Positions 1 to 6,359 of a DNA stretch of 6,359 bases are shown here, piece by piece (the stretch's first letter is position 1; each line of letters starts with the position of its first letter). The notes beneath the pieces are model-generated. The model ran no database searches. It worked only from the letters and a program-made list of their open reading frames with translations, and was not told where the DNA came from. Source of the stretch: Haloferax volcanii DS2 (GTDB taxonomy: Archaea > Halobacteriota > Halobacteria > Halobacteriales > Haloferacaceae); contig NC_013965.1 of NCBI RefSeq assembly GCF_000025685.1, forward strand, positions 1-6,359, written 5' to 3'. The position numbers and the translations under genes are program-made.

Positions 1-284
1 TCGACGGTGTCGGTGATCCCGAGATATAGGAGAGCGAACGACCACGACAGGACGTTTAGCGTATGCTCTTTCCCGTCTAAATCGCCGTCCTCGAAGGCTT
101 CCGTTCTAAGGTCCTCGTCGAGTTCCGAAACCAGGAGCGGCATATCATGTAGGGCTTCATGGAGCCGCTCGACTATCGCTCGCCGGCGTTCGTATCCTGC
201 CTGTTTGCTATACTCCTTCGGTTTTTGGAGATACCGGCGGTCGGCCGGTGACAAAATCCCTCTTGCCCTTTCGTCAAGACTCAT
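1..284 (-). CDS. Partial CDS whose C-terminus runs off the left edge. Small helical acidic protein, putative DNA-binding or regulatory protein typical of haloarchaeal mobile elements.
   Basis: Absent from the supplied ORF track because it has no stop codon inside the window. Reverse-strand ATG at 284-282. An in-frame TAA two codons upstream (290-288) fixes the start, and the frame stays open to position 1. My translation: MSLDERARGILSPADRRYLQKPKEYSKQAGYERRRAIVERLHEALHDMPLLVSELDEDLRTEAFEDGDLDGKEHTLNVLSWSFALLYLGITDTV... It is acidic and helix-prone. The N-terminal LSPADRRYL...(basic helix) pattern resembles small conserved haloarchaeal island or plasmid proteins I recall, but I cannot name the family. 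The + strand ORF 7..336 is its Ser/Arg-rich shadow. Confidence 0.6.
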   Translation of the reverse strand, partial: MSLDERARGILSPADRRYLQKPKEYSKQAGYERRRAIVERLHEALHDMPLLVSELDEDLRTEAFEDGDLDGKEHTLNVLSWSFALLYLGITDTV

Positions 285-317
285 GCTTTACCAATCACAT
301 CTTCATGTCCGTAATGC

Positions 318-323
318 TTTATA
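318..323. promoter_or_regulatory. TATA-box-like element (TTTATA / TATAAA) in the 62-bp divergent intergenic region.
   Basis: TTTATA at 318-323 is centred about 26-27 nt upstream of the ATG at 347. That is the spacing expected for a leaderless haloarchaeal transcript. Read on the other strand, it is TATAAA about 36 nt upstream of the ATG at 284. Confidence 0.4.
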
Positions 324-346
324 CGTTGTGCCCTAAAGCGGGATAT

Positions 347-490
347 ATGTCTGCCACGGACACGCGGATTCCGGTGTCGAAGGATGTGCGGCGCGACCTC
401 CGGGTTCTCAAGGCGCGGGAAGGCCGACGGTCATACGATGAGACAATTGCGGTGGTGCTTGACGCATATCTCTCTGAGAAGGTGGATTAA
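347..490 (+). CDS. 47-aa ribbon-helix-helix (CopG/Arc/MetJ-like) DNA-binding protein.
   Basis: Internal ATG (347) of supplied ORF 248..490. Product: MSATDTRIPVSKDVRRDLRVLKAREGRRSYDETIAVVLDAYLSEKVD. It fits the strand-helix-turn-helix RHH pattern: beta strand TRIPVSKDV, helix A RRDLRVLKAREG, helix B SYDETIAVVLDAYL. The size matches CopG-type repressors. The TATA box at -27 supports start 347. The 33 upstream codons (MTKSLLPFRQDSCFTNHIF...) are non-acidic and cover the promoter. Double stop TAATAA at 488-493. Confidence 0.65.
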   Translation: MSATDTRIPVSKDVRRDLRVLKAREGRRSYDETIAVVLDAYLSEKVD

Positions 491-701
491 TAAACTATAG
501 TCGTGACTAGCGAACTAGTTGAATCAAACGACGCCGGGAGCACACGAGTCTGCCAGGACTTCGCTCCTATCGGCGTCGAAGGATGCTTACGCGGACACGG
601 CGGGCGGGTGGCCCGTTGTCCTAACTCAACCAATGTGGTTGGGGCTTATGGGATTATCGGATTTTCACCCGGCGTTAGTGTTCGCACAAAAGCGACACTA
701 A

Positions 702-3347
702 ATGTACGATACGGACGATACGACGGCACACGAACCGACTGAGAAGCGAAGCCTTCGCTTTGCGACTGACCTCGAGGCGGACGTCTCGCTTACAGACTGG
801 ACCGCCCTTCGGGTTCATCGAGTAATCTTCGACGAGACAGAGAGTCAATTTGCGCTTCTCGAGGCACTACAAACAGCGGCGGACGGTGTCGACATACTCG
901 AGTTTGAACACCGACTGTCGAGTTGTGGGTTTGACGTCGATGGGTCAGTCGTGAAACTTGCACGACGAGCTGTCGCCGGCGAGAGACGGGCTCTGTGGGA
1001 CTTGATTCGGTATGCGCGACGGTTGGGACATGATGAGATGGGACAGCCACAGAGCGCCTTAGAGGACGCTCTCGCGTTCACTCGTCTATTGGGCTATAGC
1101 AACCCTCAACAGACGATAGCAATCGGTCTCAATGCGGCTTTCAGAGAGACGCGGCGCGACCAGGCCGACGAGATTATCGAGTACGTTCTAACGCTGTCTG
1201 AGAGCGTCGACGTGGTCCTTGGTGGGTCAGAGATCGACCGAGTGTACTTGCACAACTACTACGGCGATATTCTCCCATCGAGTGTTACGAATCCGTGCAA
1301 CGACACCCGTAATGATTACTCCATTACGACGCTCGTCGACGTGGTTGGGACGGACGGACTTGCTGTCGAGATACTTCGGACGGTAGGTGAGACTGAAAGC
1401 GGACACATGGCCTACAGCGCCCTACAATCGGCGTTCAGTCAGTACGATAGGACCACGGTCTCGCGGCGATTGAACGAGAAGCTAATCGAGTATGGTCTTT
1501 GTGAGAAGTACGGCGCTCGCGGAAACCTACGAATCGAGATTCTCGACAAAGGAGCGTTGTACCTCGAAGAATTAGCCAAAGAGAAAGAGCGACAAAAGGC
1601 CCTTCAGGACTACGTTACGAACACCCCAAAACCAAACCACAATACCCGTGTAATCACGGACCGCCCTCGGGGAGGGAGGGAGGACGACCACCGACCGACC
1701 GCCGAAGGTGAGGCGTCGACGACGCCGGACGGACGGGTTCGCTTACCTCGGTATCACGGTGTGGACTATCTTTCGTACGCAGAGACGGTCTCAGCGGCGA
1801 AGACACCGCCGAAGAAAGGCGTTAGTGTGACAAACTACCCTGTCGAACCCAAATCTGACCGGGGAGAAGCCGGGTGGGGCTACCTTGAGGACGAGAATAC
1901 GCTCGTCGTCTCTGCAGAGTACGACTCTGCCATGTCTCATGTGGTGATGATTGCACGAGCGTTACTCGATCCTAAGACGTTCGACCAGGTCCTTACCGAG
2001 GACCGTCTCGCGGAACTTGATGGACTAATCGAAGATGGGACGTACGTTCGTGGGTCTCGAAACCTCGGGTGGTTGGCTGACTCTGTCGACTCGGCGGGTG
2101 AGTACGTCGACGTCCTCGAGGACGCGAGAGACGAGCTACTCGACATGACGCGGTCACTTGCACATGAGGACTACGAGTGTGAGACGTCCGAGTACCTGAG
2201 TCGAATCACGAAAACGGCGATGGGTCTCGCGGGAACCGCGTTTCACGTCCTCGATTTACTCGATATTGACGTCGTTTGGGAGGCTCGCTTACCCGACTAC
2301 AACCGACACCCGGAGCGATACGGGGAGGACAATGCCGAGTTGTTAGCAACGACGCTTGCGAAGAACGCGCCGATTGCGGCGACGTACGGGAACCACGTAG
2401 TCCGGCGACTGTTGTTTGAAGACCGAGACGAGAAGCGACGTCAGTCGTTCGACCCTGTCGTCGACGCGAGCAATCCGTATGCGAACCTGATTGCGTCGAT
2501 CTCGGTGGTTGGTGACTTCGGGAATCGGGCGGACCACGTCGCCGGCGTAATAGAAGACCGACTGTCGAACCCTGGGGAGATTCACGAGGACGCGCCGGAG
2601 ATTGCGCTCAAAGTCCCTGTGGTCGTCGAGCATGGTCCGAGTACGGTTGCACGAGTAACACGGGCAATGTGTCGGGCGAAAGGTCTCGACGCGACGAGAG
2701 ACGCGATACGGCTATTCTCTGGGTTTGCACGGACACCGTACGACGTAGCCCACGCAATCGGGCGAGGGTTGTCTCAAGAAGCGACACCGAGAGAGATTCG
2801 GAGTAGCGAAGTACGGCTTTCACTCGCGAGTCTCCCGTCGAAGCGTCTCTTAGAGGACGCAACCCCCACGGTTCGGGCGATGATTAGTACGTTGCTCGCG
2901 ACGAATCTGAGCCTTAGCAAGACAGAGTTAGCCGAGAAAGCGGGAATCTCGACGCAGTCGGTTCGGAACCACTTACCGACACTTGTAGCAATGGGGTTAG
3001 TCGACGAGACCGAGGGTCAGTGCCGACTGAACCTTTCGTTCACAGACGAGCAAGAACGCCACAAGCGGATTCTTCCATCGTTCATGCTGACCGAGTCGTT
3101 CACTCGAGACGTCCTCTTTGAGACGCTAGAAGCGCTTGATGAGTTGACCGAGGAGGTAATCGAGATATGGGTACAATGCGGACCTAACGGGCTACCGGAC
3201 ATCGACCGTCTCCATACGATGTACGACTGGGTAGACTGGGTACGTCCCTTACTGTCGAGTCTAACCGAAGAACGAGACGAGACGGTTCAGACGCTGTCTA
3301 TTGGGCCGGAGATTGCACAGCAACCCCTCACGGAGGCAGGTTCGTGA
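702..3347 (+). CDS. 881-aa acidic multi-domain protein with two winged-helix-turn-helix modules. Function unknown. Candidate replication-initiation or maintenance protein of a plasmid or provirus.
   Basis: Longest ORF, and all six overlapping antisense ORFs are Arg/Ser-rich shadows. The composition is acidic. wHTH-like segment 1 is about aa 225-290 (nt ~1374-1571): GHMAYSALQSAFSQYDRTTVSRRLNEKLIEYGLCEKYGARGNLRIEILDKG. wHTH-like segment 2 is about aa 722-785 (nt ~2865-3056): LSKTELAEKAGISTQSVRNHLPTLVAMGLVDETEGQCRLNL. A low-complexity Pro/Thr/Arg/Gly linker lies at about aa 305-350 (TNTPKPNHNTRVITDRPRGGREDDHRPTAEGEASTTPDG). I see no Walker A (GxxxxGK[ST]) and no HUH motif. The functional call is inference from context only (RHH gene upstream, repeat-rich DNA downstream). 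Confidence 0.9.
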   Translation: MYDTDDTTAHEPTEKRSLRFATDLEADVSLTDWTALRVHRVIFDETESQFALLEALQTAADGVDILEFEHRLSSCGFDVDGSVVKLARRAVAGERRALWDLIRYARRLGHDEMGQPQSALEDALAFTRLLGYSNPQQTIAIGLNAAFRETRRDQADEIIEYVLTLSESVDVVLGGSEIDRVYLHNYYGDILPSSVTNPCNDTRNDYSITTLVDVVGTDGLAVEILRTVGETESGHMAYSALQSAFSQYDRTTVSRRLNEKLIEYGLCEKYGARGNLRIEILDKGALYLEELAKEKERQKALQDYVTNTPKPNHNTRVITDRPRGGREDDHRPTAEGEASTTPDGRVRLPRYHGVDYLSYAETVSAAKTPPKKGVSVTNYPVEPKSDRGEAGWGYLEDENTLVVSAEYDSAMSHVVMIARALLDPKTFDQVLTEDRLAELDGLIEDGTYVRGSRNLGWLADSVDSAGEYVDVLEDARDELLDMTRSLAHEDYECETSEYLSRITKTAMGLAGTAFHVLDLLDIDVVWEARLPDYNRHPERYGEDNAELLATTLAKNAPIAATYGNHVVRRLLFEDRDEKRRQSFDPVVDASNPYANLIASISVVGDFGNRADHVAGVIEDRLSNPGEIHEDAPEIALKVPVVVEHGPSTVARVTRAMCRAKGLDATRDAIRLFSGFARTPYDVAHAIGRGLSQEATPREIRSSEVRLSLASLPSKRLLEDATPTVRAMISTLLATNLSLSKTELAEKAGISTQSVRNHLPTLVAMGLVDETEGQCRLNLSFTDEQERHKRILPSFMLTESFTRDVLFETLEALDELTEEVIEIWVQCGPNGLPDIDRLHTMYDWVDWVRPLLSSLTEERDETVQTLSIGPEIAQQPLTEAGS

Positions 3348-3540
3348 TTGAACTAACCTTTGGTAATATGTTCGTGATATGCGTTGTATTCGGGTATCTC
3401 GTAATCTCGTGGTATCTCTCGAGACAGTACGTTCATGATTAGAGTAGGGTCGACGAACTCTGAACCTATGAATCGCGGTCGGACAACAACCCCCCATGGA
3501 ATCTTGAGGCAAGAGACAAACACGGACCACATGAACCCCC

Positions 3541-4110
3541 ATGAGTAGTAAGATGAATTACGGTCGGTTCGGGCGATGTACCGCGACAGCTAAGAGTACG
3601 GGAAAGCGGTGTGGTCGACCAGCAATCGGACCACATGGGAAGTGTGGGTTTCACGGGGGCAAGAGTAGTGGACCGAAGAATACCGAGTACCTGGAGGAAA
3701 ACGACTTTGCGAGAGGTAACTCGGGTGGGGGAGCGCCGAAGCTCAACACGAACGCGGTTCAGTCTGGTGCGTGGGTCGACCTCGAGAAGCTCGAGGCGCG
3801 ACTCTCCGAGAAAGAACGCGACGACGTCGAGCGTACGACCGAGGCATACCTCAAGCGGGCGACAGCGGACCTTCCCGAGGACGAGCTACAAGCAAAAGCG
3901 CGAGAGATTGCATTACTCCAAATTCTCCGGTTTCGAGCGACTGGTGACGTCTTTACTCGGGGGTTTGCGTGGGAAGAACCGACGTCCGTCGACGTCGCGG
4001 GCGAGAGTTACGAGTATGAGTCGACTAGAGTAAACCCCTCTGTCGGTCGTGGGTTAGACTTGTCCGCCCGGTGGCGACGTCTCATGTCCGAGATCGAAGC
4101 GTGGCCTTAG
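3541..4110 (+). CDS. 189-aa zinc-ribbon protein of HGGxSTG type with a GAPKxNxNA motif. Resembles a terminase small subunit or YjcR-type DNA-recognition protein.
   Basis: N-terminus GRCTATAKSTGKRCGRPAIGPHGKCGFHGGKSSGP gives C13-x10-C24-x10-C35-x2-H38-GG-x-S-x-GP (nt 3577-3672). This matches the bacterial and archaeal HGGxSTG motif as I remember it. It is followed by GGGAPKLNTNAVQSGAW (nt 3730-3774), which matches the GAPKGNxNAxKHGxY signature seen in YjcR and phage small-terminase-like proteins. The C-terminal half is acidic and helical. The alternative frame ORF 3611..4033 is Arg/Ser-rich. An ATG at 3553 is a possible alternative start. Confidence 0.85.
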   Translation: MSSKMNYGRFGRCTATAKSTGKRCGRPAIGPHGKCGFHGGKSSGPKNTEYLEENDFARGNSGGGAPKLNTNAVQSGAWVDLEKLEARLSEKERDDVERTTEAYLKRATADLPEDELQAKAREIALLQILRFRATGDVFTRGFAWEEPTSVDVAGESYEYESTRVNPSVGRGLDLSARWRRLMSEIEAWP

Positions 4111-4145
4111 TTGGTGTCTTCTTGCTGGTCGATGTACCCTACAAG

Positions 4146-4192
4146 TTGAATCAGAAAGTTACCGATTTGAATCGCTATCTCAAGTGTTTCAA
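4146..4192. repeat. AT-rich tract with three TTGAATC-type motifs: two direct copies and one inverted copy with a mismatch.
   Basis: TTGAATC at 4146-4152 and 4167-4173, 21 bp apart. GTTTCAA at 4186-4192 is the reverse complement GATTCAA with one mismatch. It lies just downstream of the TerS-like gene in the most AT-rich part of the window. Confidence 0.45.
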
Positions 4193-4303
4193 TTTCTGTC
4201 ATTGCATACTAAGAGTAGTCACGGTTAGGCGCGTCCTCGAAACACCCCATGGAAGAAATTGCTAATCGGGTTGTCGGTGAGTGACAACGAGGGCTAGCAA
4301 TCG

Positions 4304-4360
4304 GTACTAATCGCAAGACTGCGGTACGATACGTACTAATCAATACGTACGTGGATACGA
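4304..4360. repeat. Cluster of short direct repeats and palindromes in a long convergent intergenic region.
   Basis: GTACTAATC at 4304-4312 and 4333-4341. ATACGTAC at 4329-4336 and 4343-4350, with a partial third copy ATACGA at 4355-4360. A 5-3-5 palindrome GTACG-ATA-CGTAC at 4324-4336. An 8-bp palindrome ACGTACGT at 4345-4352. Nearby there is a hairpin GTTGTC-n7-GACAAC at 4270-4288, and CTAATCG at 4262-4268 and 4307-4313. Confidence 0.5.
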
Positions 4361-4456
4361 AATGCGGCGGTTCTCACCGGAAGAATAGTACGAATACTGA
4401 GAAGTGAGGACGCATTTTCGGAACGTCTTCAGGCGAGCGCGCGCCCGAAGTGCCGA

Positions 4457-4684
4457 CTACTCGTAACGGCAGGCTGGTCGGTGGGACGCCGTCGACGTCT
4501 CGCCGTCGAGGACTTCAGCCCCACACACGGGACACCGGACGTAGTTGTGCCCAGTCGGTTCGCCGTAGCGGTCGTACTCGGTAAACGGTCCTTCCCAGTC
4601 GGGAGTGTCGTCGATGACCTCGGCGTCGTCGCCGGCGATGATGATAGCGGTACTGTCTTGGCTTCGGGTTTCGTTGGTCGACAT
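4457..4684 (-). CDS. 75-aa acidic CPxCG-type zinc-finger micro-protein.
   Basis: Product: MSTNETRSQDSTAIIIAGDDAEVIDDTPDWEGPFTEYDRYGEPTGHNYVRCPVCGAEVLDGETSTASHRPACRYE. About 21% of residues are Asp or Glu. The metal-binding pattern is C51-P-V-C54-G ... H68-x3-C72 (nt 4469-4534). CPxCG is the hallmark of the small zinc-finger protein class described in haloarchaea. Both overlapping ORFs have atypical composition: 4481.. on the + strand (N-terminal part) and 4429..4731 on the - strand. Confidence 0.75.
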   Translation of the reverse strand: MSTNETRSQDSTAIIIAGDDAEVIDDTPDWEGPFTEYDRYGEPTGHNYVRCPVCGAEVLDGETSTASHRPACRYE

Positions 4685-4760
4685 GGTCTTTCAGTCTCCA
4701 TAGAGAAAGGCCGGTCTCGGTGTCCTACCACCGGGACGTTTCAACACGTCCGAGGATACC

Positions 4761-4822
4761 GTCTTTCTCTACCATATTGTATTAGCCACATGGACATAAG
4801 TCTTTACCATATTGGTTATGCC
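4761..4822. promoter_or_regulatory. Two about 21-27-bp imperfect direct repeats (candidate operator sites) in the divergent promoter region.
   Basis: R1 is CTCTACCATATTGTATTAGCC (4767-4787) and R2 is CTTTACCATATTGGTTATGCC (4802-4822). They match at 16 of 21 positions, with an exact 10-mer TACCATATTG, and are offset by 35 bp. Each has GTCTTT just 5' of its TACCATATTG core (4761 and 4800). A degenerate third copy, GTCTTTCAGTCTCCATA (4686-4702), abuts the start of the minus-strand gene. R2 ends 6 nt before the TATA-like box. Confidence 0.5.
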
Positions 4823-4828
4823 AAAAGG

Positions 4829-4834
4829 TATAAT
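4829..4834 (+). promoter_or_regulatory. TATA-box-like element with a purine-rich BRE-like flank for the 205-aa wHTH gene.
   Basis: TATAAT at 4829-4834 is preceded by CCAAAAGG (4821-4828). It is centred about 27 nt upstream of the ATG at 4859, which is leaderless-type spacing. Confidence 0.45.
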
Positions 4835-4858
4835 CGGGCGGGGAACGTACTGAATCGT

Positions 4859-5476
4859 ATGCCGAGGGAACATGGCGACAGCGGGACGTTTGTCGAGACG
4901 GTTAGTTTAGAGGACGTCTTAGGAGTGTTCGACGTGGTCGACGGACCGGTAATCTTGTCGGCGGACGTCGCAGACGAGTTAGATTGCTCGCGAGAGACAG
5001 CTCGTCGGAAACTACAGGCATTATACGAACGCGGCGACCTCGAGCGCCGGAAAGTCTCACGACGAGTCGTCTATTGGGAAGCCGACGTTACAGCGGAAAC
5101 GATGGGGTACGACGAGACGGCGAGAGACGCGCCACAAGATGCCGGTGATTCTATCGAGGGTACTCGGACGTCGACGGCGTCAAGCGCCGCAGAAAGCACA
5201 ATAGACATTGACGCGATTCTCTCTGATATTGAGGTACCTGGGTTTGGAGAGAAAGCCGAGGCGCGAAAGACGGCGGTTCGGGCGGTCCTCGAGTACCTAG
5301 TCGACCACAAAGAGGCGGAGAGTAAGACTCTCAAAGAGATTGCGTGGGAAGCCGATTCGGAGACGTACGCAAATGCACGAAGTCTGTGGTCGAACGCGGT
5401 AGTCAAAGCACTACACCAAATTCCCGAGGTATCGAGCGCCGGCGAGCGACAAAGTGGGTGGTCTATAGATGAGTGA
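4859..5476 (+). CDS. 205-aa protein with an N-terminal winged-helix DNA-binding domain and an acidic C-terminal domain. Putative transcription regulator, a repressor-like candidate.
   Basis: Internal ATG (codon 127) of supplied ORF 4481..5476. From here the product is acidic and haloarchaeal in character: MPREHGDSGTFVETVSLEDVLGVFDVVDGPVILSADVADELDCSRETARRKLQALYERGDLERRKVSRRVVYWEA... This is helix-turn-helix plus a wing (RRKVSRRVVYW), nt ~4901-5084. The 126 upstream codons are antisense to the 75-aa gene and cover the promoter and repeats. An ATG at 4790 is a less likely alternative start. Confidence 0.8.
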   Translation: MPREHGDSGTFVETVSLEDVLGVFDVVDGPVILSADVADELDCSRETARRKLQALYERGDLERRKVSRRVVYWEADVTAETMGYDETARDAPQDAGDSIEGTRTSTASSAAESTIDIDAILSDIEVPGFGEKAEARKTAVRAVLEYLVDHKEAESKTLKEIAWEADSETYANARSLWSNAVVKALHQIPEVSSAGERQSGWSIDE

Positions 5477-5891
5477 CGACGGCGACGACGTCGACCCAAC
5501 CAACCCACGACCGAAAGGTCACTATGGACGGTTTCGAGATTCACCGTGGTACTACGTCAATGACGAGTTAGCACAGACATTCATCCTCGGACCAGCAACC
5601 GACGCGGAACCGGGCGACGACTGGATACTGTCGTTTACGGGGGAAGGTGCAACCGAGACGGACCGCGAAAGAGTGTGTGTCCGACTGACGCCGCGAGCGT
5701 TGCACGAGCTATACATCGAGACGAAAGACTTGTCGCCGGACGCTCGACAGGCGGGACACACCGCCGAGTGTGACCTTTGCGGGGAAAGCGTCCCGCTGGA
5801 GAAGGCCGTCCCGAACAAACGCGAGGAGCCGGTTCACAAACGCTGTTATGTCGACGCCTACGGCGGGCCGGTATGGATGGAAGATTATTGA
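5469..5891 (+). CDS. 140-aa acidic protein with a C-terminal CxxCG...HxxC metal-binding motif. Function unknown.
   Basis: The start ATG overlaps the upstream stop (ATGAGTGA, 5469-5476), which suggests translational coupling. A partial Shine-Dalgarno-like GGGTGGTC lies at 5456-5463. The C-terminus ECDLCGESVPLEKAVPNKREEPVHKRC gives C101-x2-C104-G-...-H123-x2-C126 (nt 5769-5846). The antisense ORFs 5552..5818 and 5709..5906 have atypical composition. Confidence 0.8.
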   Translation: MSDDGDDVDPTNPRPKGHYGRFRDSPWYYVNDELAQTFILGPATDAEPGDDWILSFTGEGATETDRERVCVRLTPRALHELYIETKDLSPDARQAGHTAECDLCGESVPLEKAVPNKREEPVHKRCYVDAYGGPVWMEDY

Positions 5892-5898
5892 GCCGGGT

Positions 5899-5940
5899 TT
5901 AACCAACAGTCGGACGTCCCGATAGGTCGGTGTTGGTTAA
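5899..5940. repeat. Perfect 10-bp inverted repeat with a 22-nt spacer, 8 nt after a stop codon. Possible terminator hairpin or protein-binding site.
   Basis: TTAACCAACA (5899-5908) and TGTTGGTTAA (5931-5940) are exact reverse complements. The spacer GTCGGACGTCCCGATAGGTCGG can itself form a small CCGA/TCGG stem. It lies between convergent genes. No oligo-T tract follows it, so terminator function is uncertain. Confidence 0.55.
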
Positions 5941-6037
5941 GAGCGTGGTTACACCGGGAGTAAGCACGGCTCCAGTCGTCGAGATATACAAGGAGAGACG
6001 CCGAGGACGTCAAACGACGCGGTCGGCCCCCCAGGGG

Positions 6038-6359
6038 TTACTCGTCGGCGTTATCTCGAAGCTCTAAGTTCGGGAACGCTCCGACTTTGTCCGTATTCCC
6101 CGACTCCCAAGCTTCTTTGATTCGAGCCATTTGTTCCTCGCCGGTTAGGTGGGAGAGTTCGCCCGATTCGAGTAGTTGGTTCACCTCGGGGTAACTGAGT
6201 TCGTCCGGCTCGCGCTCCCGTAACTCGTCGAGCGGCTCGCCCCGTTTTACATTAACCTCGACCTCGACCTCCTCGACCGAATACCCGCGCTGGAGGTATG
6301 CCTGTCTAACACCGCTCGCGGCAATCCCCTCGAAAGCGTCCTTTGCCAAATCGGACGGT
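6038..6359 (-). CDS. Partial CDS, probably with its N-terminus beyond the right edge. Acidic protein of unknown function.
   Basis: The supplied ORF 6038..6349 begins at a TTG, but the frame stays open to the window end (...PSD-LAKDAFEGIAASGVRQAYLQRGYSVEEVEVEVNVKRGEPLDELREREPDELSYPEVNQLLESGELSHLTGEEQMARIKEAWESGNTDKVGAFPNLELRDNADE). The true start is therefore probably outside the window. Strongly acidic. I recognise no motif. Confidence 0.7.
   Translation of the reverse strand, partial: PSDLAKDAFEGIAASGVRQAYLQRGYSVEEVEVEVNVKRGEPLDELREREPDELSYPEVNQLLESGELSHLTGEEQMARIKEAWESGNTDKVGAFPNLELRDNADE

Follow-up and report, generated by a model that had tools for sequence, protein, structure and literature searches.

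Plasmid pHV2 of Haloferax volcanii as a probable virus-derived RepH replicon carrying a small-terminase homologue

What kind of replicon carries a homologue of the viral small terminase subunit (TerS) with no large subunit (TerL) to partner it, and where would the two have come from? The question is raised by a 6,359-nucleotide stretch of DNA from the haloarchaeon Haloferax volcanii DS2 (NC_013965.1, positions 1 to 6,359; the whole stretch is called the window below). An earlier note, made from the sequence alone, had singled out three genes on the same strand, at 347-490 (47 aa), 702-3347 (881 aa) and 3541-4110 (189 aa), which RefSeq annotates as well, and had suggested that they may belong to a novel, uncharacterised extrachromosomal element. 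The window proved to be the complete circular plasmid pHV2 (1-6359): the element is extrachromosomal, as proposed, but it is the known basis of the Haloferax shuttle vectors. We consider it likely that the region 347-3347 with its flanks is a RepH-type replicon, that the 189-aa gene is a homologue of viral small terminases, and that pHV2 is a virus-derived mini-replicon. The identity of pHV2 as a RepH-type replicon is already known; the residual novelty is a subfamily of TerS homologues found on elements without TerL.

Megablast against a plasmid collection aligned the window to the pHV2 record NC_001375.1 at 99.9% identity and 100% coverage; the alignment falls into two parts, the window being a circular permutation of that record by ~248 bp. 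Its length equals the 6359 bp reported for pHV2 in the DS2 genome paper (Hartman et al. 2010). pHV2 was the first plasmid ever transformed into an archaeon; shuttle vectors built on its replicon date back to the late 1980s, and the origins of pWL101/102 and of the pTA series derive from pHV2, with pHV2-based vectors having a minimum size of 7.5 kb. According to the literature, the origin is presumably Rep-dependent and functions without Orc1/Cdc6, and the plasmid is dispensable and readily cured. Scans of the whole plasmid with Pfam, PHROG, NCBIfam and PADLOC bore out the absences listed in the earlier note (P-loop ATPase, HUH nuclease, Orc1/Cdc6, integrase, capsid, portal and TerL), and the sole Walker-A-like string on the plasmid sits in a non-gene frame. 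PADLOC returned only winged-helix cross-matches to defence families, and no pHV2 protein matched ParA or ParB in Pfam or NCBIfam. The sequence of pHV2 was reportedly determined in 1987. The 1987-era record NC_001375.1 differs in length from the window by 5 bp, and its large open reading frame (ORF; 950-3376, compared with 702-3347 in the window) is annotated ~70 aa shorter, with the tblastn match split in two, which is consistent with sequencing-era frameshifts. The 189-aa protein is also identical to 'hypothetical protein C483_19520 [Natrialba hulunbeirensis JCM 10989]', from contigs of up to 6472 bp, which suggests either pHV2 contamination of that draft genome or a shared plasmid.

The 881-aa protein (HVO_D0003; 702-3347, plus strand) had been described as an uncharacterised orphan, but it is a member of the RepH family of replication proteins. 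It matches phrog_17376 ('replication protein') over aa 25-795 with E = 1.1e-115, and tblastn identified the repH genes of ChaoS9 (29% identity, E = 2e-71), phiH1 and PhiCh1 as relatives, the three viruses spanning E = 2e-71 to 4e-45. Among haloarchaeal plasmids, 56 match the RepH of pHV2; the matches include 'replication protein H' of Haloarcula marismortui (E = 1e-28), and the nearest complete plasmid relative is pHG4 of Haloferax gibbonsii ARA6 (37.6% identity). The repH homology of the pHV2 protein has been on record since 2012 (Wu et al., PMC3528665), and the repH-bearing L-region of phiH can replicate as a plasmid. On pHV2, repH is flanked by AT-rich regions and is encoded without Orc1/Cdc6 (Pfam/NCBIfam scan of the whole plasmid). 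The same features characterize the RepH replicons pNRC100/pHH1 of Halobacterium and pNG of Haloarcula, in which a large RepH-family protein, again without Orc1/Cdc6, is encoded next to an AT-rich non-coding region; Ng and DasSarma are said to have delimited the minimal replicon of pNRC100 in 1993 as repH plus the AT-rich region upstream of it. pHV2 differs from these replicons in being far smaller, in sharing only ~26-38% identity with them, and in having a gene for a ribbon-helix-helix (RHH)-like protein upstream of repH and a TerS homologue downstream. Membership in this family suggests that the 881-aa protein is the probable initiator of the plasmid, in agreement with the role that the earlier note had given it.

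Two winged-helix regions had also been read in this protein, and both were recovered, at aa 223-299 and 724-776, by profile searches and in an AlphaFold2 (AF2) model. The first domain (aa ~220-299; 1359-1598, plus strand) is matched by phrog_2440 (transcriptional regulator) at aa 223-299 with E = 4.7e-8, and the model has the topology H-E-H-H-E-E at aa 220-280. The second (aa ~722-776; 2865-3029, plus strand) is matched by Pfam HTH_20 at aa 724-769, with 26 bits against a cutoff of 27, and by many other winged helix-turn-helix families, and Foldseek aligned it with the winged-helix folds of MarR and Sso10a. The model, built from an alignment of 7 sequences with a predicted local distance difference test (pLDDT) score of 68, retrieved nothing from the PDB at E <= 1e-3 in a Foldseek search of the whole protein. 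The best PDB matches were to ORC2 subunits and to Aeropyrum ORC1 (E = 0.01-0.13), a resemblance that may reflect the shared winged helix alone. Since hhalign against an Orc1 sequence gave a probability of 0.3% and a PDB profile search returned only the winged helix, we rejected a relation between RepH and Orc/Cdc6 and keep it as no more than a faint lead. No ATPase, nuclease, primase or helicase motif was detected in RepH with Pfam, PHROG, NCBIfam, PDB profiles or a motif scan, and how a protein with no enzymatic motif and no solved relative serves replication is of interest in itself.

The gene upstream of repH encodes the 47-aa protein (347-490, plus strand; WP_006655018), an ORF that is also a RefSeq coding sequence. 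A TATA-like TTTATA lies ahead of it at ~317-322, which suggests a leaderless transcript. Homologues of this protein are encoded upstream of RepH in pHG4 (49 aa, 42% identity) and upstream of a large, apparently unrelated ORF in a Haladaptatus plasmid (46% identity). The size of the protein, its position upstream of rep and a beta-alpha-alpha pattern judged by eye fit the CopG-type repressors, and it is a putative RHH-like autoregulator or copy-number control protein. The layout recalls CopG-RepB of pMV158 and ORF56-ORF904 of pRN1, in which a presumed RHH protein of ~45-56 aa likewise lies directly upstream of rep on the same strand. The pHV2 pair differs in that the motif-less RepH is related neither to the HUH rolling-circle nuclease of pMV158 nor to the prim-pol/helicase of pRN1, and in that no profile search matched its small protein to the RHH fold. 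A 38-nt imperfect direct repeat (71% identity) occurs at 349-386, at the start of the RHH-like ORF, and at 548-585, between this ORF and repH; the repeat could function as an operator, or it may have arisen by partial duplication.

In the mechanism that we envisage, the RHH-like protein, probably an autoregulator, would precede the RepH initiator, which would presumably bind a cis site on the plasmid through its two winged-helix DNA-binding domains and recruit the host replisome. The best candidate for that cis site would be the threefold GTTCRTGAT repeat with its AT-rich DNA at 3340-3440. A repeat search placed this iteron-like array, three direct copies of GTTCRTGAT plus GGTATCTC twice, at 3340-3439 (plus strand). 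GTTCGTGAT is the form present at 3340 and at 3370, and the copy at 3431 reads GTTCATGAT; successive copies are 30 and 61 bp apart, the stop codon of repH overlaps the first of them, the two GGTATCTC units sit between the GTTCRTGAT copies in DNA of 40% GC, and there is no other copy of GTTCRTGAT on either strand of pHV2. Three copies were reached in ~5e-4 of shuffles, a value uncorrected for the six intergenic regions inspected. The array lies at the end of repH, within the presumed vector fragment (see below), and is followed directly by the TerS-like gene. Either protein might use it, and we infer a candidate RepH-binding site and origin or, alternatively, a binding site for the TerS-like protein. 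No comparable repeats were found next to the TerS-like genes of related elements. Haloferax genetics relies on the pHV2 origin every day, and a mapped cis site would help to explain how it works; 3340-3439 is a concrete candidate.

The third gene (3541-4110, plus strand) encodes the orphan TerS homologue, for which the assignment draws on PHROGs, NCBIfam, synteny, the AF2 model and BFVD. RefSeq places its start at 3553, giving 185 aa, and the homologues likewise begin with MNYG or MDYG, so that the shorter form is probably the correct one. The HGG motif (aa 38-40) and the GAPK motif (aa 64-67) named in the earlier note are both present, and its 'TerS-like' call is upheld by PHROG matches to TerS and by the presence of TerL downstream of the viral homologues in all 24 informative loci (see below); pHV2 itself has no TerL. 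The protein matches phrog_21336 (E = 3e-13) and, among curated TerS PHROGs, phrog_9231 (E = 4e-7) and phrog_1889 (E = 8e-4). The NCBIfam models HGG_STG (NF041373) and TerS_not_xtmA match it below their cutoffs (26.8 bits against 29 and 17 bits against 120, respectively), and Pfam gave no match. Its best viral match is ChaoS9_005 (39% identity, E = 1e-13), followed by the first genes of phiH1, PhiCh1 and HHTV-1. The N-terminal HGG zinc-knuckle domain (aa 7-40; 3559-3660, plus strand), delimited by the alignment and NF041373, is the presumed DNA-binding module, and its residues C13, C24, H32, C35 and H38 are invariant or near-invariant alignment columns. In the AF2 monomer (pLDDT 63), the zinc knuckle is followed by a disordered linker, a confidently predicted long helical hairpin and a C-terminal beta-hairpin with helices, a predicted layout that is compatible with a TerS. 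Foldseek found nothing in the PDB at E < 0.1 for this model; against BFVD the best match had E = 2.5e-4, and 14 of the top 50 matches are named TerS, with weak E values of 0.03-0.4. The C-terminal region of the pHV2 protein, the part of a TerS that usually contacts TerL, differs from that of the viral proteins. Against the TerS-like orthologue of a locus that we call L011 (47% identity), the ratio of non-synonymous to synonymous substitution rates (dN/dS) is ~0.2 (NG86; dS saturated). With its intact ORF, conserved zinc ligands and this ratio, the gene appears to be maintained.

With the family alignment we recovered viral homologues of this gene from 25 IMG/VR contigs and from one Halorubrum provirus; 24 of these loci have enough downstream DNA to be informative, TerL being called by BLAST or with phrog_2/phrog_38. 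The HGG-type homologue is followed by TerL in all 24, at a distance of at most 1.3 kb in 23 and of ~3 kb in one, and a portal gene usually comes next. Two metagenomic homologues (P0005 and P0007) likewise lie upstream of TerL, and the homologues ChaoS9_005, PhiH1_005 and PhiCh1 ORF1 overlap the start of terL. Metagenome and genome scans for the pHV2 type of TerS itself yielded only one weak locus and one provirus. The genes annotated as 'terS' in ChaoS9 (54915..63), phiH1 (57827..63) and PhiCh1 (58242..63) span the pac site. Their products read CxxC...HHxDGNKxN...CxxCH, and that of ChaoS9 scores 28.3 bits against Pfam HNH, above the cutoff of 21.4. To judge from these motifs, the annotated 'terS' of all three viruses looks like an HNH endonuclease, and the next gene (ORF1/_005, annotated as HTH or uncharacterised) would be the better TerS candidate. 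If the annotated gene is an HNH gene, the real order is HNH, TerS-like, TerL and portal, and the homologue of the pHV2 protein in ChaoS9 occupies the true TerS slot beside terL. The order HNH-TerS-TerL is the HK97-type arrangement. The pHV2 protein is comparable to the TerS of pac-type phages both through the gene order of its viral homologues and through its predicted architecture, in which the AF2 model places a helical oligomerisation core behind an N-terminal DNA-binding domain; it differs in having an HGG zinc knuckle instead of an HTH domain, a divergent C-terminus and no TerL partner.

The same viruses provide a possible source for both genes. In ChaoS9, which is the best viral match for both RepH and the TerS-like protein of pHV2, repH (48394-51690) is followed on the same strand, ~3.2 kb further on and past the circular junction, by HNH-terS-terL, and repH followed by a packaging module also occurs in the loci L020, L049 and L045/L046, of which L045/L046 has a gene in the TerS slot with no HGG-type match. 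The most likely origin of the pair, as judged from these similarities, would be joint inheritance of repH and the TerS-like gene from a ChaoS9-like temperate virus. The ancestor would have been a plasmid-like tailed virus from which the replication module and one packaging gene were retained, and the repH-terS segment of pHV2 would be a contracted copy of the viral repH/packaging junction. The rest of the plasmid shows no such affinity: three of its other genes, encoding a 205-aa winged-helix protein (wHTH205), a 140-aa protein (p140) and a 103-aa acidic protein (p103), have no phage relatives by tblastn against a phage collection, and a fourth, encoding a 75-aa zinc-ribbon protein (Zn75), gave nothing significant in the PHROG scan. 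A precedent for a virus-derived RepH replicon that is autonomous as a plasmid is provided by the phiH L-plasmid (p-phiHL) and by the plasmid-prophages of phiH1, PhiCh1 and ChaoS9, the virus group with the best viral matches to both pHV2 proteins. The L-plasmid differs in its size of 12 kb and in having repressor and immunity genes and no packaging gene; on pHV2, terS is present, and repressor, immunity and ParA genes were not detected. With repH-terS most likely inherited from a ChaoS9-like virus and kept without TerL, pHV2 is best seen as a virus-derived mini-replicon.

Several points weigh against this interpretation. The initiator role of RepH is drawn from homology, and a 2023 paper describes the mechanism of the pHV2 origin as not understood. 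The RHH fold of the 47-aa protein found no match in Pfam, PHROG, NCBIfam or the PDB, whether a single sequence or a three-sequence profile was used. Descent from a ChaoS9-like virus is argued from identities of 29-39% and from gene order. Purifying selection on the TerS-like gene and its recurrence on elements without TerL point to a role that a virus-derived replicon does not by itself explain. Finally, the 'pHV2 origin' of the Allers-laboratory vectors is reportedly a NcoI-HindIII fragment of ~3.7 kb. On the restriction map, HindIII cuts at 6109 and NcoI at 3494 and 4247, and the interval from HindIII (6109) to NcoI (3494) is 3744 bp, a length that agrees with the 7.5-kb minimum of pHV2-based vectors. 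If this interval is the vector fragment, it would span repH with the intergenic regions on either side of it as well as the RHH-like gene, and would presumably leave out the TerS-like gene and the 346-bp tract behind it.

The distribution of the TerS-like gene shows that it is not a general component of RepH replicons. Compared with the 56 plasmids with a RepH match, any TerS-like or HGG match occurs in 8 plasmid records, and small RepH plasmids of 8.2 kb, for example in Haloterrigena, do without the TerS-like gene, which is probably not needed for replication. On the 181-kb megaplasmid pHTUR03 of Haloterrigena turkmenica, a pHV2-like gene set persists in decayed form at 2922-3547, 8600-9205 and 12473-12604, as fragments of RepH, a TerS-like gene with a frameshift and a homologue of Zn75. 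In pHG4 (1702-6139), the 49-aa RHH-like gene and RepH are followed by a 261-aa protein that has the HGG zinc domain as its last ~40 residues and no TerS core.

To place the pHV2 protein among its relatives, we searched 1.84 billion cluster representatives exhaustively with phmmer and obtained 153 relatives at E <= 1e-3, of which ~30 clusters (at 50% identity) are full-length matches that include the distinctive C-terminal region of the pHV2 protein. An IMG/VR scan with the alignment of this subfamily returned only distant viral relatives (29-32% identity). L011 encodes the C-terminus of a ChaoS9-like RepH, the 47%-identical TerS-like orthologue and, on the opposite strand, a SWIM zinc-finger gene. 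In L059 the orthologue is followed by small ORFs and then an integrase, with no TerL in 3.4 kb. L061/L062 is a circular element of ~15.2 kb that is apparently complete (L061 is a JGI 3300037724 contig of 15545 bp whose first 30 bases recur at 15207). It encodes a 1217-aa Prim-Pol/DUF927 replicase, a TerS-like protein of the pHV2 type, MarR and ParE, and a 257-aa protein ending in an HGG domain adjoins the TerS-like gene; no structural or terminase genes were found on L061. In L063 the TerS-like gene is accompanied by homologues of Zn75 (50% identity) and wHTH205, with no TerL in 7.8 kb downstream, and L064 has no TerL in 4.6 kb. A partial ORF upstream of the L063 TerS-like gene (L063 2-1201) matches 'tail length tape measure' PHROGs with E values down to 4e-19, a match that may mark a real remnant of a virus or may be an artefact of coiled-coil composition. 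Among the contexts that extend 3 kb or more downstream (pHV2, L059, L061, L063 and L064), TerL was present in 0 of 5, whereas it was present in 24 of 24 loci of the viral type (Fisher's exact test by hand calculation, p ~1e-5). This shows that a maintained TerS-like gene without TerL recurs on small haloarchaeal mobile elements with different replicases. Its recurrence with different replicases speaks against a replication role specific to RepH and also against a pure relic.

What, then, could the gene be doing on a virus-derived mini-replicon? One answer is exaptation as an oligomeric DNA-binding factor, acting in partition or centromere binding, in transcription control, or in interference with an incoming terminase (superinfection exclusion). 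In keeping with such a role, the HGG domain alone recurs near replicases on plasmids that lack TerL (the 261-aa protein of pHG4 and the 257-aa protein of L061), pHV2 has no ParA/ParB of its own, the TerS-like gene co-occurs with Zn75/wHTH205 in L063 and in the pHTUR03 remnant, and the gene bears the signs of purifying selection described above. The full TerS-like layout is kept in the AF2 model, however, and neither a PADLOC defence-family match nor a conserved binding-site pattern in the flanks was found. We regard exaptation as rather unlikely, a tentative suggestion at best.

A second answer is that pHV2 is a satellite or hitchhiker: the TerS-like protein would bind pHV2 and recruit the TerL of an infecting virus, and headful-packaged plasmid concatemers would be transduced. 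In favour of this reading are the TerS homologue on a plasmid without TerL, the ~30 clusters of its full-length subfamily, the five TerL-less contexts with different replicases against the uniform linkage to TerL in the viral type, the low dN/dS and the iteron-like repeat directly upstream of the gene. The comparison that comes to mind is with phage-inducible chromosomal islands (PICIs) such as the Staphylococcus aureus pathogenicity islands (SaPIs), small mobile elements with their own initiator and TerS and no TerL, capsid or portal. pHV2 differs from these in being a free plasmid without integrase or att sites, and in having no known helper virus, induction circuit or pac site and no known encapsidation; its relatives carry various replicases, and an integrase occurs in L059 only. 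The absence of an integrase from pHV2, as judged by Pfam, PHROG and NCBIfam, is in keeping with a free circular plasmid.

Other observations tell against packaging by a helper. Local alignments of pHV2 with the pac regions of phiH1, PhiCh1 and ChaoS9 were no better than those of shuffled sequences, and no repeat pattern is common to the flanks of the TerS-like genes of related elements. The proviruses of H. volcanii lack tailed-virus genes, and the sole tailed virus reported on this host, HF1, has been lost (PMC12091111). The Haloferax viruses of the phage collection have no detectable homologue of the TerS-like protein, and a paper on the sequencing of an H. volcanii virus stock does not list pHV2 among the DNAs. 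The divergence of the C-terminal region that would contact TerL also counts against this reading, and filling a 55-58-kb head would need concatemers of the 6.4-kb monomer that are ~nine-fold. Taken together, these points make helper-mediated packaging of pHV2 unlikely. We are a little more doubtful still of its extension to a whole family, in which pHV2, L011, L059, L061, L063 and L064 would be small TerS-only plasmids and integrative elements with interchangeable replicases (RepH, Prim-Pol) whose own DNA is packaged by helper tailed viruses. An exapted DNA-binding role in partition, regulation or interference and packaging piracy fit the data equally well. If TerS-only elements do exploit helpers, virus-mediated plasmid transfer would join the routes of haloarchaeal gene flow, and archaeal tailed viruses would have their first described satellite or hitchhiker system. 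The host of pHV2 is genetically tractable, which makes the idea testable, and pHV2 would then be a tractable founder of the system.

The earlier note had paired the TerS-like gene with the non-coding DNA that follows it, proposing that 4111-4456 could be a replication origin or a pac-like site. The 346-bp gap is there as described, between the TerS-like gene and the convergent minus-strand gene for Zn75, and no other part of the plasmid is as rich in AT (the tract has 48% GC as a whole and 35% at 4141-4220). It had been called full of short repeats and palindromes, but against dinucleotide-preserving shuffles the enrichment is only marginal: p is ~0.05-0.10 for direct k-mer repeats, ~0.02 for inverted ones and ~0.25 for 6-bp palindromes, and the actual repeats are 8-9-nt matches in two copies. 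Rfam gave no match in 4111-4456. An origin or pac-like site here would draw on the AT-richness, on the few short inverted and direct repeats and on the position adjoining the TerS-like gene. Against it, the direct repeats and palindromes are near chance, the tract lies between convergent genes, the usual place of terminators, the pac site of myohaloviruses is upstream of the TerS-like gene and not downstream, the presumed vector fragment (HindIII 6109 to NcoI 3494) would not contain the tract, and the repeat at 3340-3439 is statistically stronger. We find such a site improbable and consider 4111-4456 to be probably terminators and spacer.

That the TerS-like gene is an inert relic of an ancestral virus without current function might be read from the clear decay of the pHTUR03 copy, frameshifted among RepH fragments, and from the easily cured and dispensable nature of pHV2, but an intact ORF with all conserved zinc ligands, a dN/dS of ~0.2 against the 47%-identical orthologue and ~30 diverged full-length clusters, with several independent TerL-less elements, make this most improbable.

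The remaining part of pHV2 encodes four further proteins. Zn75, the 75-aa CxxC zinc-ribbon protein (4457-4684, minus strand), has weak matches to zinc-ribbon Pfam families, and its homologues in L063 (50% identity, E = 4e-16) and pHTUR03 (45% identity) are both encoded near TerS-like genes. It is separated from the divergent gene for wHTH205 by a promoter region (4685-4858) with the strongest enrichment of direct k-mer repeats on the plasmid (p = 0.01-0.03). Within this region, a 28-nt imperfect direct repeat at 4766-4793 and 4801-4828 (75% identity, 35-bp spacing) is a probable operator. p103 (6038-6349, minus strand) is an acidic ORF absent from the RefSeq annotation, for which Pfam, PHROG, NCBIfam and tblastn searches brought up neither a family nor a phage relative. 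wHTH205 (4859-5476, plus strand) is a RefSeq coding sequence that matches Pfam HVO_A0261_N and HTH_20 below cutoff; it has homologues in pHG4, L061, L063 and a Halorientalis plasmid. The gene for p140 (5469-5891, plus strand) overlaps the end of the wHTH205 gene, and p140 has a homologue in Halorientalis litorea (72.5% aa and 78% nt identity). The wHTH205-p140 pair (4859-5891) is kept on the 8.9-kb plasmid of this species (L052 50-1089), which also encodes a large 'MarR family' protein, a RelE/RHH pair and an integrase.

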